This document shows positions 1,609 through 50,832 of a stretch of DNA of 64,000 bases, one piece after another. Position 1 is the stretch's first letter, and each line of letters opens with the position of its first letter. The stretch lies in contig CAYXQC010000004.1 in NCBI GenBank assembly GCA_964467385.1, positions 9,429-73,428 on the forward strand, written 5' to 3'. Made by a program: the position numbers and the translations under genes. Under the pieces are notes generated by a model. That model saw only the letters and a program-made list of their open reading frames with translations, made no database searches and was not told the DNA's origin. The DNA is from an uncultured Candidatus Saccharibacteria bacterium (GTDB lineage: Bacteria; Patescibacteriota; Minisyncoccia; Phycocordibacterales; CAIZLB01).

Positions 1609-1681
1609 GGGCCCGTAGCTTAGTTGGTAGAGCGCCTCATTTGCACTGAGGAGGTCAGCGGTTCGAATCCGCTCGGGTCCA
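1609..1681 (+). tRNA. tRNA-Ala (anticodon UGC)
   Basis: Cloverleaf readable by eye. Acceptor GGGCCCG/CGGGTCC carries the G3:U70 alanine identity pair. Anticodon loop is TTTGCAC with a TGC anticodon. T-arm is GCGGTTCGAATCCGC. CCA is not encoded. Confidence 0.85.
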
Positions 1682-1691
1682 CAAAAACAAA

Positions 1692-1726
1692 GCACCCCAT
1701 CGTAAGATGGTGGTGTTTTGTTTTTG
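1692..1726 (+). terminator. rho-independent terminator after tRNA-Ala
   Basis: Hairpin cacc-ccatc gtaa gatgg-t-ggtg (one-base bulge) followed by TTTTGTTTTT. Confidence 0.5.
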
Positions 1727-1870
1727 CATACTAAGAAGCAAGCCGACTGCTCGGCTTGCGTGCGGATTCGAAAGGGTTCTCCTATATTTTCGAACGAATG
1801 CTTTTGCGACTTTAGCCAAGCATACGTGAGAAAATGGGAAACCCGTACTGCGCCTGTAAGGCGAGAAATT

Positions 1871-1884
1871 CCGCTCGGGTCCAC
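1871..1884 (+). repeat. direct repeat of the tRNA-Ala 3' end (att-like junction)
   Basis: Core ccgctcgggtccac matches the tRNA 3' end exactly. With one flanking base each side (ttccgctcgggtccac) it matches tRNA positions 1665-1680 at 15 of 16. It lies immediately upstream of promoter module A. Confidence 0.6.
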
Positions 1885-1890
1885 TCGATA

Positions 1891-1919
1891 TTGACTACTG
1901 TAAGAACGTATAGTACTAT
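1891..1919 (+). promoter_or_regulatory. promoter module A: TTGACT-N17-TACTAT within an inverted repeat
   Basis: TTGACT 1891-1896, 17-nt spacer, TACTAT 1914-1919, followed by the conserved CCGTGCG and leader ttgagtttggaagaaaggtca. An aagaac/gttctt inverted repeat brackets the -10. Confidence 0.5.
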
Positions 1920-2518
1920 CCGTGCGATGTGTTCTTTTAATTTGGTTGAGTTTGGAAGAAAGGTCATAACTTCCACACTGGTTTTCTGATTGGAAACTGG
2001 GGTTGTGATCCTTCCACTGAACTCAAATGCCAGAACCCTTTAAAAAATCAGGAGAAAAAATCCTTGATGACGCTGCAATTCATTTCACCGTCAATGACGT
2101 AAAATATCGTGTCAGAGCGAGTGCTTTTTTACAGATTTGATTCTTTTACCAGATGGGAAATACATGGTTGTAAATGAGTGGACTAGAGGCAACCCTCTCA
2201 AGCCAACCAAGTGGAAGCTTCTAGATGAAGTACCCAGTGACATGAGTCACCTCGAAGTCTATATTGCTGAGCAGTATGAATGGGAATAGGGTGATTACTA
2301 AGATTTGTCCCCGTTCTGTAAACTGAATGGAGAGCCTAGAGAAAGCAGAGTCTCAACAAGAGCCCCGAGCACAAGCGGAGGGTTCTTTTTAATTTAAAAT
2401 TCTCCTCAAAACCACCAACTCCTTTACAACTTGGTTCAGAAAAATGAAAGAGAAGTCCACTCGCATTGACTTTCTGTATAAATATGGCAATATATAGAAA
2501 GGGAACGAGGTGATTTAA

Positions 2519-2761
2519 ATGAATATCACCGTTACAGAACTGGAAGGCAAATTCGCTTTCTTGTTGTTGAAAAAAGTGATAAAAGAGAAAGATTCGTTGA
2601 GGAAACATAAGCCCAACGAAATCAAGCGCGAAGTAGTTAAGGTCGCGGAGGAACTCGGGGTTAAACCTGAAGACCTCTATTCTCTCTACCGCCGTATCGT
2701 CAACGAGCTAGTCGAGGAAGCTCGTCTTCCAGAAAAAATGGACTTCACCAAGCAAGGCTAG
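2519..2761 (+). CDS. hypothetical small protein (80 aa), island cassette
   Basis: ORF follows a gaagtccactcgcattgac promoter-like module and an RBS ggaacgaggtga. A hairpin terminator (aagccgca...tgcggctt) lies downstream. Confidence 0.45.
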   Translation: MNITVTELEGKFAFLLLKKVIKEKDSLRKHKPNEIKREVVKVAEELGVKPEDLYSLYRRIVNELVEEARLPEKMDFTKQG

Positions 2762-2949
2762 GCACCACGCCTACTAAAAGGGTAATTGCTCCTCCCACAC
2801 CAATGTGGCAAGGGCAGAACAAGAACCTCTCCTCCTTGGAGTCCAGAAGCCGCATCAGTAATGGTGCGGCTTCACTCTTTTAATATTTCACATAAATAAA
2901 CTAAATCTTTTGCAATTTGGTTTATAAAAATAATACTGAAGTCCACAAC

Positions 2950-3888
2950 CTCAATCATGCACCACATCTGCAACCTCGATATATACTTGAGGAATGAGAC
3001 ATTCAATACGAGATATATTAATTGAATTACGAAAGCAAAAAGGAAACTGTGCAAAAACAGCAAGAAGACTCGGAATACATAAAAGCACTGTGAGTAGATG
3101 GAAAAAGCGATCACAAAGAGGTGGTCGCTTTTTAGTTAATCAAATCAAGAGAGAATCAACGAGGCCTACCAATATTAAATATGTTCTCACAGAAAGAGAA
3201 GAGACAGATATCATCAAACTACGAGAAAGGAGGAAGTGTACAGCAGAGAAGATTAAATATATCCTTAAGCTTAAGGTGTCGGTAAGCACCATACAGAGAT
3301 TTTTAATACGAGTTGGTCTCATTGAACAGGAAGGATATCGTCGAAGACCTAAATTTCAAAATACCATACATATGCATGCAAAAAACGTTACTACAGTTGG
3401 ATACCTTCAAATGGATGTGAAAGTAGTTACTCCAGAGCTCTCAGGGCTACCTTGGACTTGTTTTGAGTATGCAGTCATTGATATTTACTCAAGATGGAAA
3501 GACGCTGTGATATTGAATCAGTTAGATCAAGATGGTTCCATCGGTGCACTCCTTGAGATATTACCGCGTCTTCCATTCAAACCTGTATTCATACAAACAG
3601 ACAACGGACTTGAGTTCCAACAGAAGTTTAAGAAGTTCCTAGATGGGTGGAATCTTAAACACCATCATATTCACAAATCTACTCCTAACGAGAATGCAGT
3701 GATTGAGAGATCCTTCCGAACCGATGAAGAAGAATTTTACTTTAGAATTGAACATCGACCTAAACACTACGACGAGCTTCGTGACCTTCTCAAAGACTTC
3801 CTGTACTACTACAACCATGAGAGACCACATTTGGGTATTAACATGAAAACACCAGCTGAAATGGTTGCAGATGTGGTGCATGATTGAG
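2950..3888 (+). mobile_element. IS481-family insertion sequence (939 bp) with perfect 26-bp terminal inverted repeats
   Basis: Left IR ctcaatcatgcaccacatctgcaacc (2950-2975) is the exact reverse complement of 3863-3888. A single transposase ORF sits inside. Confidence 0.75.
2994..3887 (+). CDS. IS481-family transposase (HTH + rve integrase core, DDE)
   Basis: N-terminal HTH (KTARRLGIHKSTVSRWKKR). rve core motifs QTDNGLEF, PNENAVIERSFRT and YNHERPHLGINMKTP. The C-terminus runs into the right IR. Confidence 0.85.
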   Translation: MRHSIRDILIELRKQKGNCAKTARRLGIHKSTVSRWKKRSQRGGRFLVNQIKRESTRPTNIKYVLTEREETDIIKLRERRKCTAEKIKYILKLKVSVSTIQRFLIRVGLIEQEGYRRRPKFQNTIHMHAKNVTTVGYLQMDVKVVTPELSGLPWTCFEYAVIDIYSRWKDAVILNQLDQDGSIGALLEILPRLPFKPVFIQTDNGLEFQQKFKKFLDGWNLKHHHIHKSTPNENAVIERSFRTDEEEFYFRIEHRPKHYDELRDLLKDFLYYYNHERPHLGINMKTPAEMVADVVHD

Positions 3889-3894
3889 ACGATA

Positions 3895-3923
3895 TTGACT
3901 ACTGTAAGAACGTATTGTACTAT
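3895..3923 (+). promoter_or_regulatory. promoter module C: TTGACT-N17-TACTAT within a perfect 8-bp inverted repeat
   Basis: Same 29-nt core as module A except one spacer base. aagaacgt / acgttctt flank the -10 (operator-like). It is upstream of ORF 4039-4551. Confidence 0.5.
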
Positions 3924-4038
3924 CCGTGCGACACGTTCTTTATATAGTTTGGGTTTAGAAATAGAGCCTTAAGAATCGCAGCCGACCTGCGATGCACTTA
4001 AAGTTCTTAACTCAACCCAAACAAAACAGCAACCTACC

Positions 4039-4551
4039 ATGACCGAACTACCTCCACCTCCCAGTGTTATCTACCTCTACCCATACACGATCCCTGTAGA
4101 TACTCTTCAGGCTTCGCGAGAGGGTTGGGTTCAAGTGCTTGCGGACCTTCAGGTTGAACGTGGTGACTCTTTCATTCTTCAGCCTGGCTACAGCATATCG
4201 CTAGCTATCAAGGACCTCGAAGTTGGTATCCTTATCACCGAGGATAACCCAGGCAAGGAATACCACGAGCTCAGCCTATTCCTCTTCGAGTTCGACCTGA
4301 GTTCGCTTGGCGACTTTTTTGTCCCGGCCACGGCGCTTTACACGTATGACGATGGGGCAAACTATGTCACCAGTGTCATTGAACACGTAATCACCGAGCA
4401 CTGGAAACCGCGCGTATTTACTCGTGCTGTTGCCGGCAATGAAACCGTAATCGAGGTTGTCCTTGAAGTTACACATGTTGGTGCAGGTGCGCCAATTGAA
4501 TACGTCGAACGTCTTGATCTGCTGAGCTTCGCAGCTTACGCAGGTGACTAG
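4039..4551 (+). CDS. hypothetical protein (170 aa), island cassette, GC-richer than surroundings
   Basis: ORF downstream of promoter module C and followed by a hairpin plus T-run terminator (~4590-4625). No recognisable family. Confidence 0.5.
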   Translation: MTELPPPPSVIYLYPYTIPVDTLQASREGWVQVLADLQVERGDSFILQPGYSISLAIKDLEVGILITEDNPGKEYHELSLFLFEFDLSSLGDFFVPATALYTYDDGANYVTSVIEHVITEHWKPRVFTRAVAGNETVIEVVLEVTHVGAGAPIEYVERLDLLSFAAYAGD

Positions 4552-4796
4552 TTTCGAGCCAAAAAAACCACCACCTCAAACACAGGGCCACTGTCGCAAG
4601 GTAGTGGTTTTCTGTTTTTTTAATTTCTTACCTTTAAATACGAAAATATACATAGTTCTAATACACACTGGTAGTAAGAACAAAGCTCAATACATCCCTA
4701 CTCAACTTCCTCTTTCTCAGCCTTGAGTATATAAGCCAGCACTTGCAACTCCTTAACCATTTGGTTCCATATTTGAGGCGGGAAGTCCACTCGCAT

Positions 4797-4825
4797 TGAC
4801 GAACAAAAGAATATATTGTACTATC
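4797..4825 (+). promoter_or_regulatory. promoter module D: TTGACG-N17-TACTAT plus conserved leader
   Basis: TTGACG 4797-4802, 17-nt spacer, TACTAT 4820-4825, then CCGTGCAG. The leader ttgagtttggaagaaaggtca..ctggggttgtga..cttccact is shared with module A. Confidence 0.5.
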
Positions 4826-4932
4826 CGTGCAGTATGTTCTTTTAAATTGTTTGAGTTTGGAAGAAAGGTCAGAACTTTTTACCAGTGTTGCTCTGCGAAA
4901 CTGGGGTTGTGACTCTTCCACTAAACTTAATC

Positions 4933-5241
4933 ATGAACAGATTATTGAAGAAGATATTGCGAATGGGCAACCTAGAGCAGTGCACTGAAACGGATATTGA
5001 AGAGGTGATTGCGAGAGGCGCAATAACAACAAAGCAGAAAGAGGTGCTATTTGGAGTGTATAGAACTCACCTTTCGTATGATTCGATTGCGATGAAGGTT
5101 GGCTGCACACCCCTGGGAGCACGTCGAATCGCAAGAAAAACATTTTTAAAGCTGGAGTATGCACTTGCAAGTCGTGCCACAGATCGTTTTATCGACCACC
5201 AAATCATCTGCGGTGTGGCAGCTGCAGCCGCTGGTTGTTGA
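4933..5241 (+). CDS. small HTH protein, sigma-70 region-4-like / LuxR-like helix-turn-helix
   Basis: LSYDSIAMKVGCTPLGARRIARKTFLKLE resembles a sigma region 4.2 HTH. The start was moved from the track's 4885 to the ATG at 4933, because 4885-4930 is the conserved promoter leader shared with module A. Confidence 0.4.
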   Translation: MNRLLKKILRMGNLEQCTETDIEEVIARGAITTKQKEVLFGVYRTHLSYDSIAMKVGCTPLGARRIARKTFLKLEYALASRATDRFIDHQIICGVAAAAAGC

Positions 5242-5485
5242 TAGCTACCCCTTTTTGTTTTTTTATCCAACTCTCCCTACAACAAGGAGTCACACGACTC
5301 ATGATGTGGGGCTTTTTGTTTTATTTAAAAATCTCTTTTAATCATTGCAACTCCCTCATAATCTGGTTCAGAAAAATAAAAGGGAAGTCCGTAGAGTATT
5401 AGCAAATAACACGTAATGTGGTATTTTGTTTTTAGGTTATCGATTCACGATACCGTTCAATACAAAAAAGAAAGGAACCTGCTCA

Positions 5486-5784
5486 TGAGCTTTTCATTGC
5501 TTAGTAAGTTTTACGCCCGTCCGGAGCTTTTCCGGAAAAACCAACCCGTCTATCTTCGTAAGTCTGATGAAGAGGCTGACGAAGATTCCCGTAGAAAACT
5601 TTCTCATCTGCGGGAGCAGATCGGTAGCGGACCGTTTCGTGTGCTTCGGATCACGGACACACCCTCCTCGAAAGCTGCACCTCAATGCGTCACGCTTGCT
5701 GACACAGGAAGTGATGCTCCTCTGCGAACCGAGGATGGACCACTGGAACTCAGCGGCTACTATCTGTCGTCGGATCCGCAGTAA
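5486..5784 (+). CDS. hypothetical protein (~99 aa), island cassette
   Basis: ATG at 5486 is preceded by the RBS aaaggaa, and a terminator-like hairpin lies at ~5805-5850. The longer track start at 5416 lacks an RBS. Confidence 0.35.
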
Positions 5785-6042
5785 GTCCAACTTGGTCGTC
5801 GCCCACTAACTCAGCACAGGAACCCCTGTCGTGAGATAGTGGGTTTTCTATTTTTATGTTACCAACAAATATCTCTGAACACTTTTCCAGATTTCGCATC
5901 TGTAAGGTTGAAATACGCAATTGGGTGATTCAAAAGTCTTGAACCATTACGGGGTATTGACTAGTGTAATATAACGTGATACTAATTGTAACGTTCTTTT
6001 ACATCTGAAAATCAATTCAAACGACAACTCAAAAAAACAGTC

Positions 6043-12086: not shown

Positions 12087-12596
12087 ATCATCTTCTTCCT
12101 TGCATGAGAACAGAGAATATCTGCTGATATTTTCCTCTATTCGCTGCAGCTCATTAGTCTCAAGCAAATCATCAGATAATTTATTCAATAAGATAGCCAA
12201 AATCAAAGCTGATTTTAAACAAAATATTGACAAAAATTTGTTTCATCTCGCTGTGTATTTTTTAAGTGTTTTTTTGGTAAGAAAATATACCTACGCGCGG
12301 CAGAATATGTGACATCAATCCGTTGCCTTAACATTGATTTTCACACGGGAGCATCCAAGCATTAGCGACCGATGAGTGCTTAATTGCGTTCTGACCCACT
12401 AAGCGAATGCACCCACTTTATATCTTCGTATAGGTAGCCATTGATTCGCAAACACAATCCGCTTTGACGGGTTGTTTTGTTTTTTTGACAATAGTCACAT
12501 TGTGTCGTAATATTTTCGAGTTCTACAAAGGACATTGAAAAATAAAAGCCAAAAAACCAGCAACAACGACTTTTAACCCATAAGGAAGGAATTCAA

Positions 12597-13013
12597 ATGC
12601 TTAAAAATGCAGAAAGTGAAAGAGGAAAAACTGAGGAAAAGCCCAAAAAGCGGATCCTGATCGTGGAGGACAATGAACGGATTGGTGAAACGATGGAGTG
12701 GTTTTGCGGAATCCAGCTGGGCTTCGTAGTGGCGTGGGTAAAGACTCGGAGAAATGCCTCTCGTCACATCAACATGAAAGGTCCTTGGGATTGCGTCATT
12801 CTCGACGGATGTCTTGAGGGTTTGGAACCTGATACGTTGTATTTGATCCCTGTGATCAAGGCAACATCCCCAAACTGCGTGATCATTGCCAACTCGAACG
12901 ACCTGCATGTTTCTGACCGGCTGATGGCTGAAGGTTGTCACCTCCGTTTTCCGAGCAAGGATGATTTCAATCAATTCTTCCGCAAGTTCTGCGAGGAGAA
13001 AGGTTGGACCTGA
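12597..13013 (+). CDS. stand-alone receiver (REC/CheY-like) domain protein, possibly degenerate
   Basis: KRILIVEDNERIGE ... CVILDGCLEGLEP ... fold pattern. Strong RBS aaggaagg. Promoter TTGACA-N17-TAATAT lies upstream (~12498-12527). Confidence 0.5.
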   Translation: MLKNAESERGKTEEKPKKRILIVEDNERIGETMEWFCGIQLGFVVAWVKTRRNASRHINMKGPWDCVILDGCLEGLEPDTLYLIPVIKATSPNCVIIANSNDLHVSDRLMAEGCHLRFPSKDDFNQFFRKFCEEKGWT

Positions 13014-32671: not shown

Positions 32672-32935
32672 AAGAAAAATCCTTATTTAAACAAGCCAAA
32701 CTTTATGCAAAGCGTACATCTAACTGGTGTGCGTTTTGTTATCCTTGTTGCAAGGATCTTGAATAGTGGTAGCATTTAGCTTGTACAAAAGAAATACATA
32801 TTCTTGGAGCGAAAAGGTTTTTAATCACCTTCGCAATCAAACCAGAATATGCAATCTTCGTACATTGTTCAGCAATTCTATAGCTGACTCTTAGCTCTTT
32901 TAGTGCAACCGTTAAAATAGAGAGGCAAAATTGCA

Positions 32936-33103
32936 GTGAAATCCACTTCAGTCAAAACGTCTGCATTGGCCAAAAGCACCCTCGAACGCACCATCATCGC
33001 CTCGGGCTTCGCGCTCCTGGCTCTGATGGCTGTGGCCTGTTTCTCTCAACATCACCACCCACCGTGGCTTGATCACTCTTTGGGCGCTGGAGGCTCAAGC
33101 TAA
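32936..33103 (+). CDS. putative 55-aa lipoprotein-like micropeptide (GTG start) in a GC-rich intergenic block
   Basis: RBS gagagg 10 nt upstream of the GTG. Signal-peptide-like ...TIIASGFALLALMAVAC, then a His-rich tail FSQHHHPPWLDHSLGAGGSS. Below the 60-aa ORF-track cutoff. Could instead be a structured RNA. Confidence 0.2.
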   Translation: MKSTSVKTSALAKSTLERTIIASGFALLALMAVACFSQHHHPPWLDHSLGAGGSS

Positions 33104-33363
33104 TCCTCAGAATTCTGCTAAAACGTGATATGTAAATGTCCTCGGTCAATTCTCCATGTATCGACCAGATGCCATAAACATCATGTTCAAAGCAGAATAC
33201 GAGTCATCTTTGCGTATCTCTCGCTCACGCGCACTTCCTTGTTTTAAACTCTCATCTCCAGCAGTCTACGCAATCCGCTGGGTCAGGTGAAAGTTAACGA
33301 GGAGGTGCGTTTTTTTACACACAAAATTTGCACCTATACTAAATATGCTAGAATATATCGCAT

Positions 33364-34638
33364 ATGGATTCTTTCTTTGAATCAGTAACCGTTAATGCCG
33401 TTCTTGTTTTTTTCTTTAAGATTGTCTATCTTGGTATTGCAATTGCAGTCCCTGTCTATCTTTCAAAAAAGTTTTGGAAAAAATGGAAAGCCTATGTCCG
33501 TGCACAGTTTTTTGCTAAGCAAAAGTACGTAGTACTTGAACTTAAAATTCCAAAGGGTTCAACAAAATCACCACTCGCCATGGAGGTATTCATGCATTGT
33601 TTGAATCAGACTGGCGGAGAGGGGACAAACTATGACAAGTTTTGGCTCGGTAAAAGTCGGACGATGTTTTCACTCGAAATTGTCTCAAACGGTGGTGACG
33701 TTAGTTTTTTGATCTGGACACGAGAGACATTTCAGGCAATTGTTGAGAATAACCTGTATTCGCAATTTCCAGATATTGAGATTCGAGTAGTTGATGATTA
33801 TGCATTTGATACACCATATGATGGCTCTGGTGATATTGAAATGTTTGCATGTGATTTTGTAAAAAATAAGGACTCTCATTATCCTATAAAAACGTATGTA
33901 CAGTACGGCTTAGATAAAGACCCTGACGAGGAGTTTAAGGTCGACCCAATCACACCCGTGATTGAAACACTTGGTTCACTTCAGAAAGGTGAGCAGATTT
34001 GGATTCAGATTGGTGTACGGGCGCACAAAAAAGAGATTCCAAAACCTGATACATGGTTTGAAAAAGTTGATTGGGAACATTTTGCTAAAGATGAAATCAA
34101 GAAGCTTATGAAGCGTGACGAGAAGCCAAAGGAGGGTCAACTTAAGATCGAAGAGCTTTCTATGACAAAGGGTGAGAAGGAAAAAGTGGAAGCTATTGAG
34201 AAAAATATTTCGAAAATAGCTTTTGATTGTGGTATTCGTGTGATTTATCTTGGTAAGAAAGATAAAGTGCGTGGAACTTTTGTGCCCGCAGTTACGGGTA
34301 TTTTTAAGCAATACAATACTACAAATCTCAATGGGTTTAAGCCTGCAAATGCGACATCTTTTGACTATCCATGGCAGGATCGAAGTGGTAAGAAACTTAT
34401 TCAGCACAAGAAAGCAATGTTGTATCTCTACAAGTATCGTTACTTCTTTTTCGATGAGTTTTTTCCGACTCAATACAAGACCATGTTCACTAAAAAAGAT
34501 TATGATTACCAACCATTTGTCCTCAGTGTTGAGGAATTAGCTAGTCTTTATCACTTCCCAGGTGATGTGTCACGAACCCCATCACTCTCACGTATTAATG
34601 CTAAGAAAGTTGAGCCGCCTGCGAATCTGCCAGTTTAG
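33364..34638 (+). CDS. hypothetical membrane-anchored protein (424 aa)
   Basis: N-terminal TM (VLVFFFKIVYLGIAIAVPVYL). Lys/Glu-rich middle region. Conserved-looking C-terminus LSVEELASLYHFPG. Promoter TTTGCA-N16-TAGAAT upstream. Confidence 0.5.
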   Translation: MDSFFESVTVNAVLVFFFKIVYLGIAIAVPVYLSKKFWKKWKAYVRAQFFAKQKYVVLELKIPKGSTKSPLAMEVFMHCLNQTGGEGTNYDKFWLGKSRTMFSLEIVSNGGDVSFLIWTRETFQAIVENNLYSQFPDIEIRVVDDYAFDTPYDGSGDIEMFACDFVKNKDSHYPIKTYVQYGLDKDPDEEFKVDPITPVIETLGSLQKGEQIWIQIGVRAHKKEIPKPDTWFEKVDWEHFAKDEIKKLMKRDEKPKEGQLKIEELSMTKGEKEKVEAIEKNISKIAFDCGIRVIYLGKKDKVRGTFVPAVTGIFKQYNTTNLNGFKPANATSFDYPWQDRSGKKLIQHKKAMLYLYKYRYFFFDEFFPTQYKTMFTKKDYDYQPFVLSVEELASLYHFPGDVSRTPSLSRINAKKVEPPANLPV

Positions 34639-49026: not shown

Positions 49027-49431
49027 ATGACAACTGAAACTAAAAAATACATAGAGGCAATCGGACGACGAAAGACATCTACAGCTCGAGTTCGAATCAC
49101 TCCTTCAACAAAGCAATCTATAAAGATCAATGACAAAGAACTCAATGAATACTTTAAGACTTCAGATCTTCAAGTTAAAGCTCTTGAAGCTGTTGCTAAG
49201 TCAGGTACAGAGCAGAAGTTTGCTATTACAGCTAAAATCGTAGGCGGAGGAACAAGCTCACAGTCAGAAGCACTCCGACACGGTATTGCACGAGCAATCG
49301 AAAAGTCAGAACCACACCTTCGGTCAAACCTTAAGAAGGAAGGTTTCCTTACACGAGATCAACGAACAAAAGAACGACGAAAGTTCGGTCTCAAGAAAGC
49401 TCGAAAAGCACCACAGTGGTCAAAACGATAG
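49027..49431 (+). CDS. rpsI: 30S ribosomal protein S9
   Basis: GRRKTSTARVRITP... C-terminal RRKFGLKKARKAPQWSKR. Confidence 0.9.
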   Translation: MTTETKKYIEAIGRRKTSTARVRITPSTKQSIKINDKELNEYFKTSDLQVKALEAVAKSGTEQKFAITAKIVGGGTSSQSEALRHGIARAIEKSEPHLRSNLKKEGFLTRDQRTKERRKFGLKKARKAPQWSKR

Positions 49432-49535
49432 AAAAGGTGTACTGATCCTGCAAGGATGTAAGAAATTTTGTGAGCGACGACGAACAAAATATTCGTGACC
49501 AAACAACAATCGTAGAAGTCTATGCAGAATTCAAG

Positions 49536-49565
49536 ACCTCTCAGAAATGGGAGGTTTTGTATTAT
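49536..49565 (+). terminator. weak rho-independent terminator after rpsI
   Basis: acctc tcagaaatgg gaggt followed by TTTGTATTATT. Confidence 0.35.
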
Positions 49566-49596
49566 TCGAAAAAAATAAATTATTAAAAATGTAAAA

Positions 49597-50054
49597 ATAA
49601 AAAATCCACCGGAGAGTGCAGTTTGGCGAGCGTGAGAACTCAAACCATATACATCTCCGGTGGAAACTCAGGTAGGTGGTGTTTAGCAACCAAAACCTCC
49701 TTTGTTAACTCCTTAGCTTGAGAAAAGCTGATCAGGCGAATTCCCAGCTCGTGCCCGTGGGGACTCAGTCGATTTTGCCTTGTGGCGATGAGTAAACCCT
49801 TTCGCGCCGGCGTATTAGAAACCGGGCAGTTGAGCATATGCTTTAGTAGGAGTTTGCACTTGTGACCTGTATAGGTGGTTCCATTGGGTTCCACCTGACA
49901 AATCAGGCAAAACAAGTGCTGTATACCTATCTTTTGTACCTGTGACCAAAGCAACCACATCGGGATGCTTTACGAGGGTGCTGAACACCAATCCGTCCTC
50001 GCGTGGCCGTGCGGCCTTCTTCGGACATCCGAAGGTGAATCTCAAATACCGCAC
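49597..50054 (-). ncRNA. candidate structured non-coding RNA (~450 nt) with its own promoter and terminator; identity unresolved (RNase P RNA or tmRNA are the obvious guesses)
   Basis: Minus-strand promoter TTGACA-N16-TACTAT (50083-50088 / 50061-50066). Minus-strand terminator CCACCGGAGA...TCTCCGGTGG then TTTTTTATTTTT (49594-49663). GC-rich with many perfect hairpins (e.g. GGTGGAACCCAATGGAACCACC). The two overlapping minus ORFs have no RBS or homology. Confidence 0.45.
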
Positions 50055-50060
50055 ATGCGG

Positions 50061-50088
50061 ATAGTATCACGCTTATATGGTTTGTCAA
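50061..50088 (-). promoter_or_regulatory. sigma70-type promoter of the candidate ncRNA (TTGACA-N16-TACTAT-CCG)
   Basis: Reverse complement of 50061-50088 reads TTGACAaaccatataagcgtgaTACTAT. It shares the TACTATCCG -10/discriminator with the island promoter modules. Confidence 0.4.
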
Positions 50089-50217
50089 TATTATCGTCTT
50101 TAATTAAAAATTAACTGAATCTGAGAAAATTGGCAGAAATGGCTCTATTTTTGAGAAAATTTTGATAGCCATTTAATGTTTGCAATTTATAATACTTTTC
50201 ATTAAAATATCACCACT

Positions 50218-50832
50218 ATGACAGACCAGAACACTCGCAAAAATCAAGAAATCGAGGAGCAGGACATCGAGCTTGAGCCTATAACGGGTAGCAATAAAGA
50301 TTCAGACATAGCCGATGATGTGGTAATAGATGAAGAGACAGAGATGGGTACACCAGCTGTTGTTAAAAATCTTCGTGAAAAGCTAAAAAAAGCTGTCGAG
50401 GAAAAACAAGAGTATCTAACGGGTTGGCAAAAAGACAAAGCTGAATTCATTAATGCTCGAAAACGAGACGAAGATGCAAAGCAAGAATTTCTAAAATTTG
50501 CTAAGCAGGGAATTATAGAAGATATTCTTCCTGTGCTTGATAGTTTTGATATGGCTATGGCAAATAAAGCTTCGTGGGAATCTATTTCAGCTGAATGGAG
50601 AGGTGGAGTAGAAGGAATTTACAATCAGCTTCTTGGTGTACTCACAAAACAAGGTGTTTCGTCATTTGGAGCAATAGGTGATGCGTTTGATCCAAATCTC
50701 CACCAATCTGTTTCAATGGTTCCAACTGAAGATAAATCTAAAGACCACACAGTGGCAAACGTCCTCCAGAAGGGTTACATACTTGGAGGAAAAGTCGTAC
50801 GACCTGCTATGGTTCAAGTGTTTGAGGCTTAA
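50218..50832 (+). CDS. grpE: nucleotide exchange factor GrpE
   Basis: Coiled-coil N-terminus, then ILPVLDSFDMA...GYILGGKVVRPAMVQV, typical GrpE C-terminus. Confidence 0.85.
   Translation: MTDQNTRKNQEIEEQDIELEPITGSNKDSDIADDVVIDEETEMGTPAVVKNLREKLKKAVEEKQEYLTGWQKDKAEFINARKRDEDAKQEFLKFAKQGIIEDILPVLDSFDMAMANKASWESISAEWRGGVEGIYNQLLGVLTKQGVSSFGAIGDAFDPNLHQSVSMVPTEDKSKDHTVANVLQKGYILGGKVVRPAMVQVFEA

Follow-up and report, generated by a model that had tools for sequence, protein, structure and literature searches.

Our leading reading, which we hold tentatively, is that the spacer between rpsI and grpE in the 64-kb stretch of DNA analysed here (the window) contains an acquired, lineage-specific insertion of ~0.6 kb with a self-contained unit on the minus strand, the product of which is probably a non-coding RNA. 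Judging from its sequence features, the unit would be transcribed and its product would act as RNA. The earlier note on this DNA had proposed an unannotated minus-strand RNA gene at this place; the proposal stood up in that the unit is independent, has no coding signature and folds beyond coding controls, but the identity suggested for it, RNase P RNA or tmRNA, did not. We favour a non-coding RNA because of the polarity of the transcription signals, the lack of a coding signature and of a called gene, and the folding beyond that of coding controls. Counting against this reading, the unit has no homologue and therefore offers neither covariation nor a sign of purifying selection; its structure signal is moderate, given a GC-adjusted z of -1.8, chance-level hairpins and strand symmetry; and one of its ORFs, ORF79, has its start codon right at the predicted +1, in a genome where two genes have -10 hexamers at an estimated near-leaderless spacing.

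Locus and transcription signals

The gene order at the locus is rpsD-rpoA-rplQ-rplM-rpsI, a 786-nt spacer, grpE, a gene for a hypothetical protein of 150 aa and dnaK. The coordinates of rpsI (49027-49431) and grpE (50218-50832) agree with the siting of the candidate between these two genes in the earlier note. The host belongs to the Patescibacteria (CPR) and is of the Paceibacteria / Taylorbacteria type, the nearest GTDB species being annotated as Paceibacterota, Taylorbacteria or Patescibacteria. An identical GrpE is encoded on an NCBI metagenome contig (GCA_013558375.1) and two Logan contigs, and the spacer was 100% identical among the three contigs fetched for the locus. The best GrpE match in 5.8 billion proteins showed only 77% identity, so the species is barely sampled.

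A strong minus-strand promoter and a minus-strand intrinsic terminator had been claimed for the unit, and we recovered both (Table 1). The promoter, read from 50088 to 50061, has a TG extended -10 and 10/12 matches, and places the predicted +1 at ~50054-50056. Sites of the form TTGACA-N16-18-TAnnnT occur only twice in the 64 kb, both times in intergenic DNA, and this promoter is one of the two. The perfect stem of the terminator measured 11 bp, compared with the 10 bp first reported, and is followed by a U-tract (TTTTTTATTTTT / UUUUUUAUUUUU). It encloses a 38-nt interior that folds on itself as a nested hairpin (pair probability 0.98); a simple terminator scan had passed over it only because its loop exceeds 8 nt. 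Promoter and terminator have the same polarity and bracket exactly the GC-rich block. With a same-strand sigma-70 promoter and an intrinsic terminator on its flanks, the unit has the make-up of an independent bacterial transcription unit.

The GC content of positions 49610-50059 was 0.507, compared with 0.403 on average for the window (sd 0.030; z = 3.4), which confirmed that the segment is GC-richer than its surroundings and made it the second-richest 450-nt stretch of the window. GC peaks elsewhere in the window adjoin a tRNA-Ala gene, in a region that also has an rve-family integrase gene. Because these peaks sit in an integrase-bearing island, high GC marks foreign DNA in this genome as readily as RNA structure. 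Foreign origin alone could explain the high GC of the candidate, a point against the non-coding RNA reading.

Table 1. Features of the rpsI-grpE spacer and its flanks (window coordinates)
Feature	Positions	Strand	Details
rpsI	49027-49431		Gene bounding the candidate's spacer
rplM-rpsI operon terminator	49532-49559	+	Convergent with the candidate's terminator
Lineage-specific insertion relative to L091	49565-50178		Approximate extent, from flank alignment
Intrinsic terminator	49593-49664	-	11-bp GC-rich perfect stem, 49664-49654 / 49615-49605
Predicted transcript	49597-50054	-	~455 nt, GC ~0.50, moderately structured
ORF106	49640-49960	-	106-aa ORF
11-nt perfect inverted repeat, arm CAAACCATATA	49641-49651		Inside the terminator hairpin
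Predicted multibranch domain	49707-49854	-	Closed by AACUCCU/AGGAGUU, probability 0.86
ORF79	49815-50054	-	79-aa ORF, GTG at predicted +1, leaderless candidate
64-nt interrupted hairpin, GCACUUGU.../...ACAAGUGC	49856-49919	-	Most stable internal element, pair probabilities 0.94-1.0
Sigma-70-type promoter	50061-50088	-	TTGACA-16-TACTAT, TG extended -10, 10/12 matches
11-nt inverted repeat, second arm	50074-50084		In promoter spacer, upstream of predicted +1
grpE promoter	50180-50208	+	TTGCAA-17-TAAAAT, kept in L091, divergent from the candidate's promoter
grpE	50218-50832		Other gene bounding the candidate's spacer

Between the divergent promoters of the candidate and grpE, a 10-nt direct repeat, TGAGAAAATT, is present twice (50122-31 and 50152-61), together with an 8-nt inverted repeat, AAATGGCT / AGCCATTT, that we read by eye at ~50137-44 and ~50167-74. 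The repeats of this segment (50122-50174) may constitute an operator; they are missing from L091, a relative in which the site is empty.

Several other regions of the window drew our attention. Positions 1609-6000 begin with tRNA-Ala(TGC); next come the gene for an rve-family integrase or transposase (2994-3887) and GC-rich ORFs, at 4039-4551 and 5416-5784, that had no Pfam match. Probably an integrated mobile island, this region accounts for two of the window's four GC-richest segments. A gap of ~690 nt at 32672-33363 has no large ORF and no Rfam match at the gathering score; its centre is GC-rich, and a 55-aa ORF within it (32936-33103) encodes a hydrophobic stretch resembling a transmembrane helix. 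The only other perfect promoter-like site of the window, TTGACA-N17-TAATAT at 12485-12513 (+), lies in a 486-nt gap (12087-12572), and downstream of it a GC-rich segment (12597-13013) weakly matches the receiver domain of response regulators.

Known RNA families, folding and coding potential

When searched with Rfam 15 at the gathering score, the whole window yielded only tRNA-Ala. At E<=10, neither positions 49400-50300 nor the isolated 464 nt of 49597-50060 matched RNase P, tmRNA, SRP or 6S RNA, in a search of the 464 nt that reported matches as weak as 7.6 bits, to another family. SRP RNA and 6S RNA were ruled out on the basis of these blanks at both thresholds, and the candidate could be assigned to no other Rfam 15 family. 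The Rfam check proposed in the earlier note, with models of RNase P, tmRNA, SRP and other non-coding RNAs, therefore produced nothing in favour of these identities. Searches at E<=10 of positions 1-420, of the L004 and L008 spacers described below and of 17 related loci returned tRNA-Ala only. ARAGORN found no tmRNA, its sole match being the tRNA-Ala at 1609. The P4 helix of RNase P RNA has two conserved strands, CR-I (GAGGAAAGUCC) and CR-V (ACAGAAnnnGGCUUA). On the minus strand of 49597-50060, CR-I was missing within 2 mismatches and CR-V within 3. These motif scans and the ARAGORN result bear out the earlier remark that neither P4 strands nor a tRNA-like end could be found.

RNase P RNAs of CPR bacteria do not reach the Rfam thresholds in ~10 of 35 complete genomes, yet RF00010 still picks up the divergent ones, with low scores (PMC8172020), so a blank at E<=10 carries weight. 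Our search of the literature for CPR-specific structured RNAs at the rpsI-grpE locus returned nothing relevant except this paper (PMC8172020).

The size of the unit (~450 nt), the tendency of CPR RNase P RNAs to miss Rfam thresholds and the lack of a detected RNase P RNA or tmRNA elsewhere in the window all speak for the identity first proposed, an RNase P RNA or a tmRNA that has diverged strongly. The last of these points means nothing, since the window is a fraction of the genome. The covariance models, the P4 scans and ARAGORN all argue the other way, and so do the related loci: those of relatives with ~90% DnaK identity had no similar sequence, one site was empty, and the universal conservation expected of RNase P RNA was not seen in related grpE neighbourhoods (nhmmer, blastn). 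Absence from all relatives tested, including the one with the empty site, indicates that the unit is not a housekeeping RNA, unless the gene had moved. The identity as RNase P RNA or tmRNA is effectively refuted.

Comparison with other RNA classes showed partial likenesses. Like RNase P RNA (RF00010 / RF00011; ~350-450 nt), the unit is GC-richer than its AT-rich host and has its own promoter and terminator, but it lacks a P4 strand and a covariance-model score, is not conserved in close relatives and has an empty-site relative. It shares a similar size and a stand-alone gene with tmRNA (ssrA), but has no tRNA-like domain, CCA end, tag reading frame (ARAGORN) or Rfam match. Orphan bacterial sRNA and ncRNA genes of intergenic islands are likewise sited at operon boundaries, with a sigma-70 promoter, an intrinsic terminator, no coding signature and a narrow phylogenetic distribution; at ~455 nt, the candidate is longer than typical trans-acting sRNAs, and it showed no above-chance target complementarity in the window. 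GOLLD, ROOL, OLE, raiA and HEARO, all of which are in Rfam, are large structured non-coding transcripts often found on foreign DNA. They are, however, defined by conservation and covariation over many genomes, whereas the candidate is unique and matched no model.

We then considered folding. The full-length transcript had a minimum free energy (MFE) of -160.4 kcal/mol, compared with -136.5 +/- 6.3 in shuffles (z = -3.8). Sub-windows of 240 nt on the minus strand gave z values of -2.0 to -3.1, and the rpoA and dnaK coding controls gave ~-0.3. The folding energy is thus beyond that of shuffled sequence, but after regression of MFE on GC the candidate ranked only 6th in stability among 160 windows (residual z -1.8), and the signal was strand-symmetric, with the plus strand folding as well as the minus strand and slightly better in every sub-window. 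Only about half of the nucleotides of the candidate have a well-defined pairing state. Among the elements listed in Table 1, the predicted multibranch domain would sequester the first of two Shine-Dalgarno-like AAGGAG motifs. The description of the segment as packed with perfect hairpins was not supported: we counted 3 separate ones with stems of 5 bp or more, whereas dinucleotide shuffles had 2.8 +/- 2.0, and this number was equalled or exceeded in 153 of the 500 shuffles. A long-range helix between the two ends of the unit had also been suggested; the 15-nt pair exists, with 87% complementarity (13/15), but this is at chance level and the helix is absent among the high-probability pairs.

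Neither of the two ORFs in the unit looked like a host gene. Codon log-odds were -0.06 for ORF79 and -0.17 for ORF106, compared with 0.33 +/- 0.13 for host genes and -0.21 +/- 0.21 for spurious ORFs; host-like codon usage is thus lacking in both, though a foreign gene could fail in this respect too. The source contig shown has no called gene in this spacer, and in the collection searched the products of ORF79 and ORF106 were nowhere recorded as called genes. A search with the six concatenated frames against 5.8 billion proteins, intended to reveal homologous RNAs that had been miscalled as ORFs, returned nothing, as did a search with ORF79 against the same proteins and searches of all six frames against Pfam and PHROGs. 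ORF106 gave a single match among 1.84 billion representatives, P0121, a protein of 684 aa with twelve 56-aa tandem repeats that is evidently translated satellite DNA. We rejected it as a homologue, because its E-value of 2e-16 is an artefact that sums twelve matches of ~24 bits each. The claim that the ORFs have no homology was therefore upheld across Pfam, PHROGs, the 5.8 billion proteins and the 1.84 billion representatives. AlphaFold2 modelled ORF79 from its single sequence with low confidence (pLDDT 58).

The accompanying claim, that the lack of a ribosome-binding site speaks against coding, is void, because the real genes of the window are also without a Shine-Dalgarno sequence: a Shine-Dalgarno-like 4-mer was present in 2 of 42 genes, and well-defined genes start after A-rich leaders that lack one. 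At several genes, such as grpE (50180-50220) and the gene at 33364 (33327-33366), the -10 hexamer lies 7-9 nt from the ATG, a spacing that by our own estimate suggests leaderless or near-leaderless mRNAs. The GTG of ORF79 stands at the same distance from TACTAT as these ATG codons do from their -10.

The rpsI-grpE spacer in relatives

We found no relative of the candidate sequence. Searches with nhmmer and blastn against the related grpE neighbourhoods (L001-L080, L084-L093 and L094-L096) returned nothing, and the same was true of tblastx against 93 related loci and of blastn against phages and plasmids. In the window itself, blastn revealed neither a second copy in the 64 kb nor target complementarity above chance. 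Six degenerate 24-nt patterns back-translated from ORF79 and ORF106 had no match in IMG/VR or the JGI metagenomes, nor did an exact 22-mer of the hairpin apex in the JGI metagenomes. The loci of the closest GrpE relatives (74-79% identity) contained no copy of intermediate divergence, and one of them was an empty site.

In this empty-site relative (L091; GrpE 74% identity), the rpsI stop is followed by a conserved 40-nt block, a terminator, ~45 nt, and the grpE promoter and ATG. The ~0.6 kb at the candidate's locus is accordingly a lineage-specific insertion, which runs from just past the rpsI terminator to just short of the grpE promoter. A perfect 11-nt inverted repeat with arms CAAACCATATA / TATATGGTTTG flanks 444 bp here; by our own estimate, such a repeat is expected by chance ~0.09 times per 850 nt, and one arm lies within the terminator. 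No direct repeat was detected beside the arms that would mark a target-site duplication, and the window held no other copy of the kind that MITEs leave. MITEs and Correia-like elements resemble the candidate in being intergenic and lineage-restricted, in their length (~440 bp, here with an 11-nt perfect terminal-like inverted repeat) and in being able to carry promoter or terminator signals. The candidate differs from MITEs in having no target-site duplication or second copy in 64 kb and in having one arm inside a terminator hairpin.

The adjacency of rpsI and grpE is kept in 62 related loci, where the spacer is hypervariable, measuring anything between 43 nt and 3.2 kb and differing in content without any relatedness. 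The L001, L092 and L093 spacers contain a HicA toxin gene and an adjacent upstream ORF (HicB-like as read in L001), and those of L094 and L096 contain hypothetical ORFs. In the L011 spacer, a small GC-rich protein gene on the minus strand has a TTGACA promoter, a terminator and a Shine-Dalgarno sequence, whereas the grpE start of L011 lacks a Shine-Dalgarno sequence. In L004, a 245-nt ORF-free unit at 3541-3785 (+) has a TTGACA-17-TATATT promoter (11/12), a terminator and a folding z of -5.1, and just upstream of grpE there is a second terminator-ended segment (3790-3952, +) with no Rfam match. In L008, an ORF-free stretch of 711 nt at 3150-3860 (+) has a TTGACA-16-TATGAT promoter with TG (11/12) and an apparent strong terminator; it is rich in UUCG and GNRA tetraloops, and its MFE is -254, compared with -195 in shuffles (z -7.6).

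These L004 and L008 units share with the candidate the slot, the absence of ORFs, a TTGACA-type promoter, a terminator, a strong fold z and the lack of an Rfam match, but they lie on the opposite strand, have no sequence similarity to it and are better structured. Neither has an Rfam match, and they are dissimilar to each other as well. The L008 unit had no homologue in any fetched locus, and both units were absent from their own nearest relatives (~80% GrpE identity; for L004, these are L095 and L096). Unrelated spacer contents and units missing from nearest relatives together point to the rpsI-grpE slot as a fast-turnover landing site. Both units are stronger structured-RNA candidates than that of the window, and the L008 unit is a stronger large-ncRNA candidate than 49597-50054.

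The conserved block in the rpsI 3' UTR is a separate observation. It spans ~40 nt (window 49461-49503, +; AAATTTTGTGAGCGACGRCGAACAAAATATTYGTGAC) and was also present at L091 136-188, L034 3384-3424, L001 3275-3311, L002 3618-3656 and L035 ~2520-2580, with 92-95% identity across species whose surrounding spacer is unrelated. The block, which had no Rfam match, folds into a hairpin of 7 bp whose ~12-nt loop is nearly invariant. In the alignment, one pair of this hairpin changes across species from U-A to U.G to C-G, and its neighbour from G-C to G.U.

Competing explanations and biological meaning

It is possible, if on balance doubtful, that the candidate is a non-functional relic of foreign or mobile DNA, perhaps MITE-like, in a permissive inter-operon gap, in which case the promoter-like and terminator-like signals would be remnants or by-products. 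The sequence is unique and absent from every relative tested, the spacer turns over fast enough for the L004 and L008 units to be missing at ~80% GrpE identity, and the GC-rich DNA of this genome is mobile-island DNA. The perfect 11-nt inverted repeat around 444 bp and a structure signal that is only moderate after GC correction point in the same direction. On the other hand, a promoter with an extended -10 close to consensus and a terminator with an 11-bp stem and a U-tract, both properly oriented and placed around the block, are unlikely to be accidental; the MITE variant finds neither a target-site duplication nor a second copy in the 64 kb; and Patescibacteria genomes are compact, with 0.6 kb of junk seldom retained. 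We regard it as unlikely that the unit is the mRNA of a small orphan protein, either ORF79, read leaderless from a GUG at +1, or ORF106, on a foreign gene cassette comparable to the small minus-strand gene in the same spot of L011. In a genome that makes no use of Shine-Dalgarno sequences, the missing ribosome-binding site is uninformative, and the GTG of ORF79 shares the -10-to-start geometry (7-9 nt) of grpE and the 33364 gene. The L011 cassette, with its TTGACA promoter, small ORF and terminator, sits in the same spacer and orientation. By our own estimate, moreover, an open frame of 110 codons is expected by chance ~0.2 times in the region, and the GC1/GC2/GC3 values of ORF106 (0.52/0.36/0.53) fit a gene from a genome of ~50% GC. 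Against a protein, neither 5.8 billion proteins nor 1.84 billion representatives held a homologue once the P0121 artefact was set aside, neither product was recorded as a called gene, and the codon scores are in the spurious range. In addition, the start of ORF106 lies inside a hairpin, ORF79 would leave a structured 3' UTR of ~215 nt, and ORF79 and ORF106 overlap out of frame with each other.

A structured leader on the plus strand, such as a thermosensor, that belongs to the grpE-dnaK operon would be in keeping with the slightly better folding of the plus strand in every sub-window and with the plus-strand location of the L004 and L008 units. We nevertheless judge such a leader, suggested by analogy, to be highly improbable: the stretch from the rpsI terminator to the block lacks a plus-strand promoter, the terminator hairpin read on the plus strand is without a U-tract, a conserved promoter directly before the ATG already serves grpE, and the minus-strand signals are strong.

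Under the non-coding RNA reading that we prefer, ~0.6 kb of lineage-specific DNA, probably horizontally acquired, would have entered the neutral gap that separates the terminator of rplM-rpsI from the promoter of grpE, a gap with rapid turnover in Paceibacteria. The insertion would carry a strong extended -10 promoter that drives a GC-rich transcript of ~455 nt ending at a long-stem intrinsic terminator. This transcript would most likely be a stand-alone, species-specific non-coding RNA, accessory or cargo in nature and not housekeeping.

For annotation, the candidate region should not be labelled rnpB or ssrA, and a missing Shine-Dalgarno sequence is no argument against coding in this genome. 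A more intriguing lead than the candidate itself is that relatives repeatedly carry, in this slot, ORF-free units that fold strongly and are unrelated. Conceivably, although we give this only a small chance, RNA-only cassettes that are mutually unrelated and turn over fast use the rpsI-grpE gap of Paceibacteria as a landing pad, which would be an undescribed phenomenon. Each cassette would have its own consensus promoter and terminator and a strongly folded payload free of ORFs (window 49597-50054, L004 3541-3785 and L008 3150-3860). If so, there would be a pool of mobile structured RNAs that serve as accessory genes of ultra-small symbiotic bacteria. If the unit of the window is transcribed and functional, it would add a long orphan non-coding RNA to the Patescibacteria (CPR), whose RNA biology is almost uncharted, and would point to a hot spot between operons at which toxin-antitoxin modules and unrelated structured RNAs are gained and lost.
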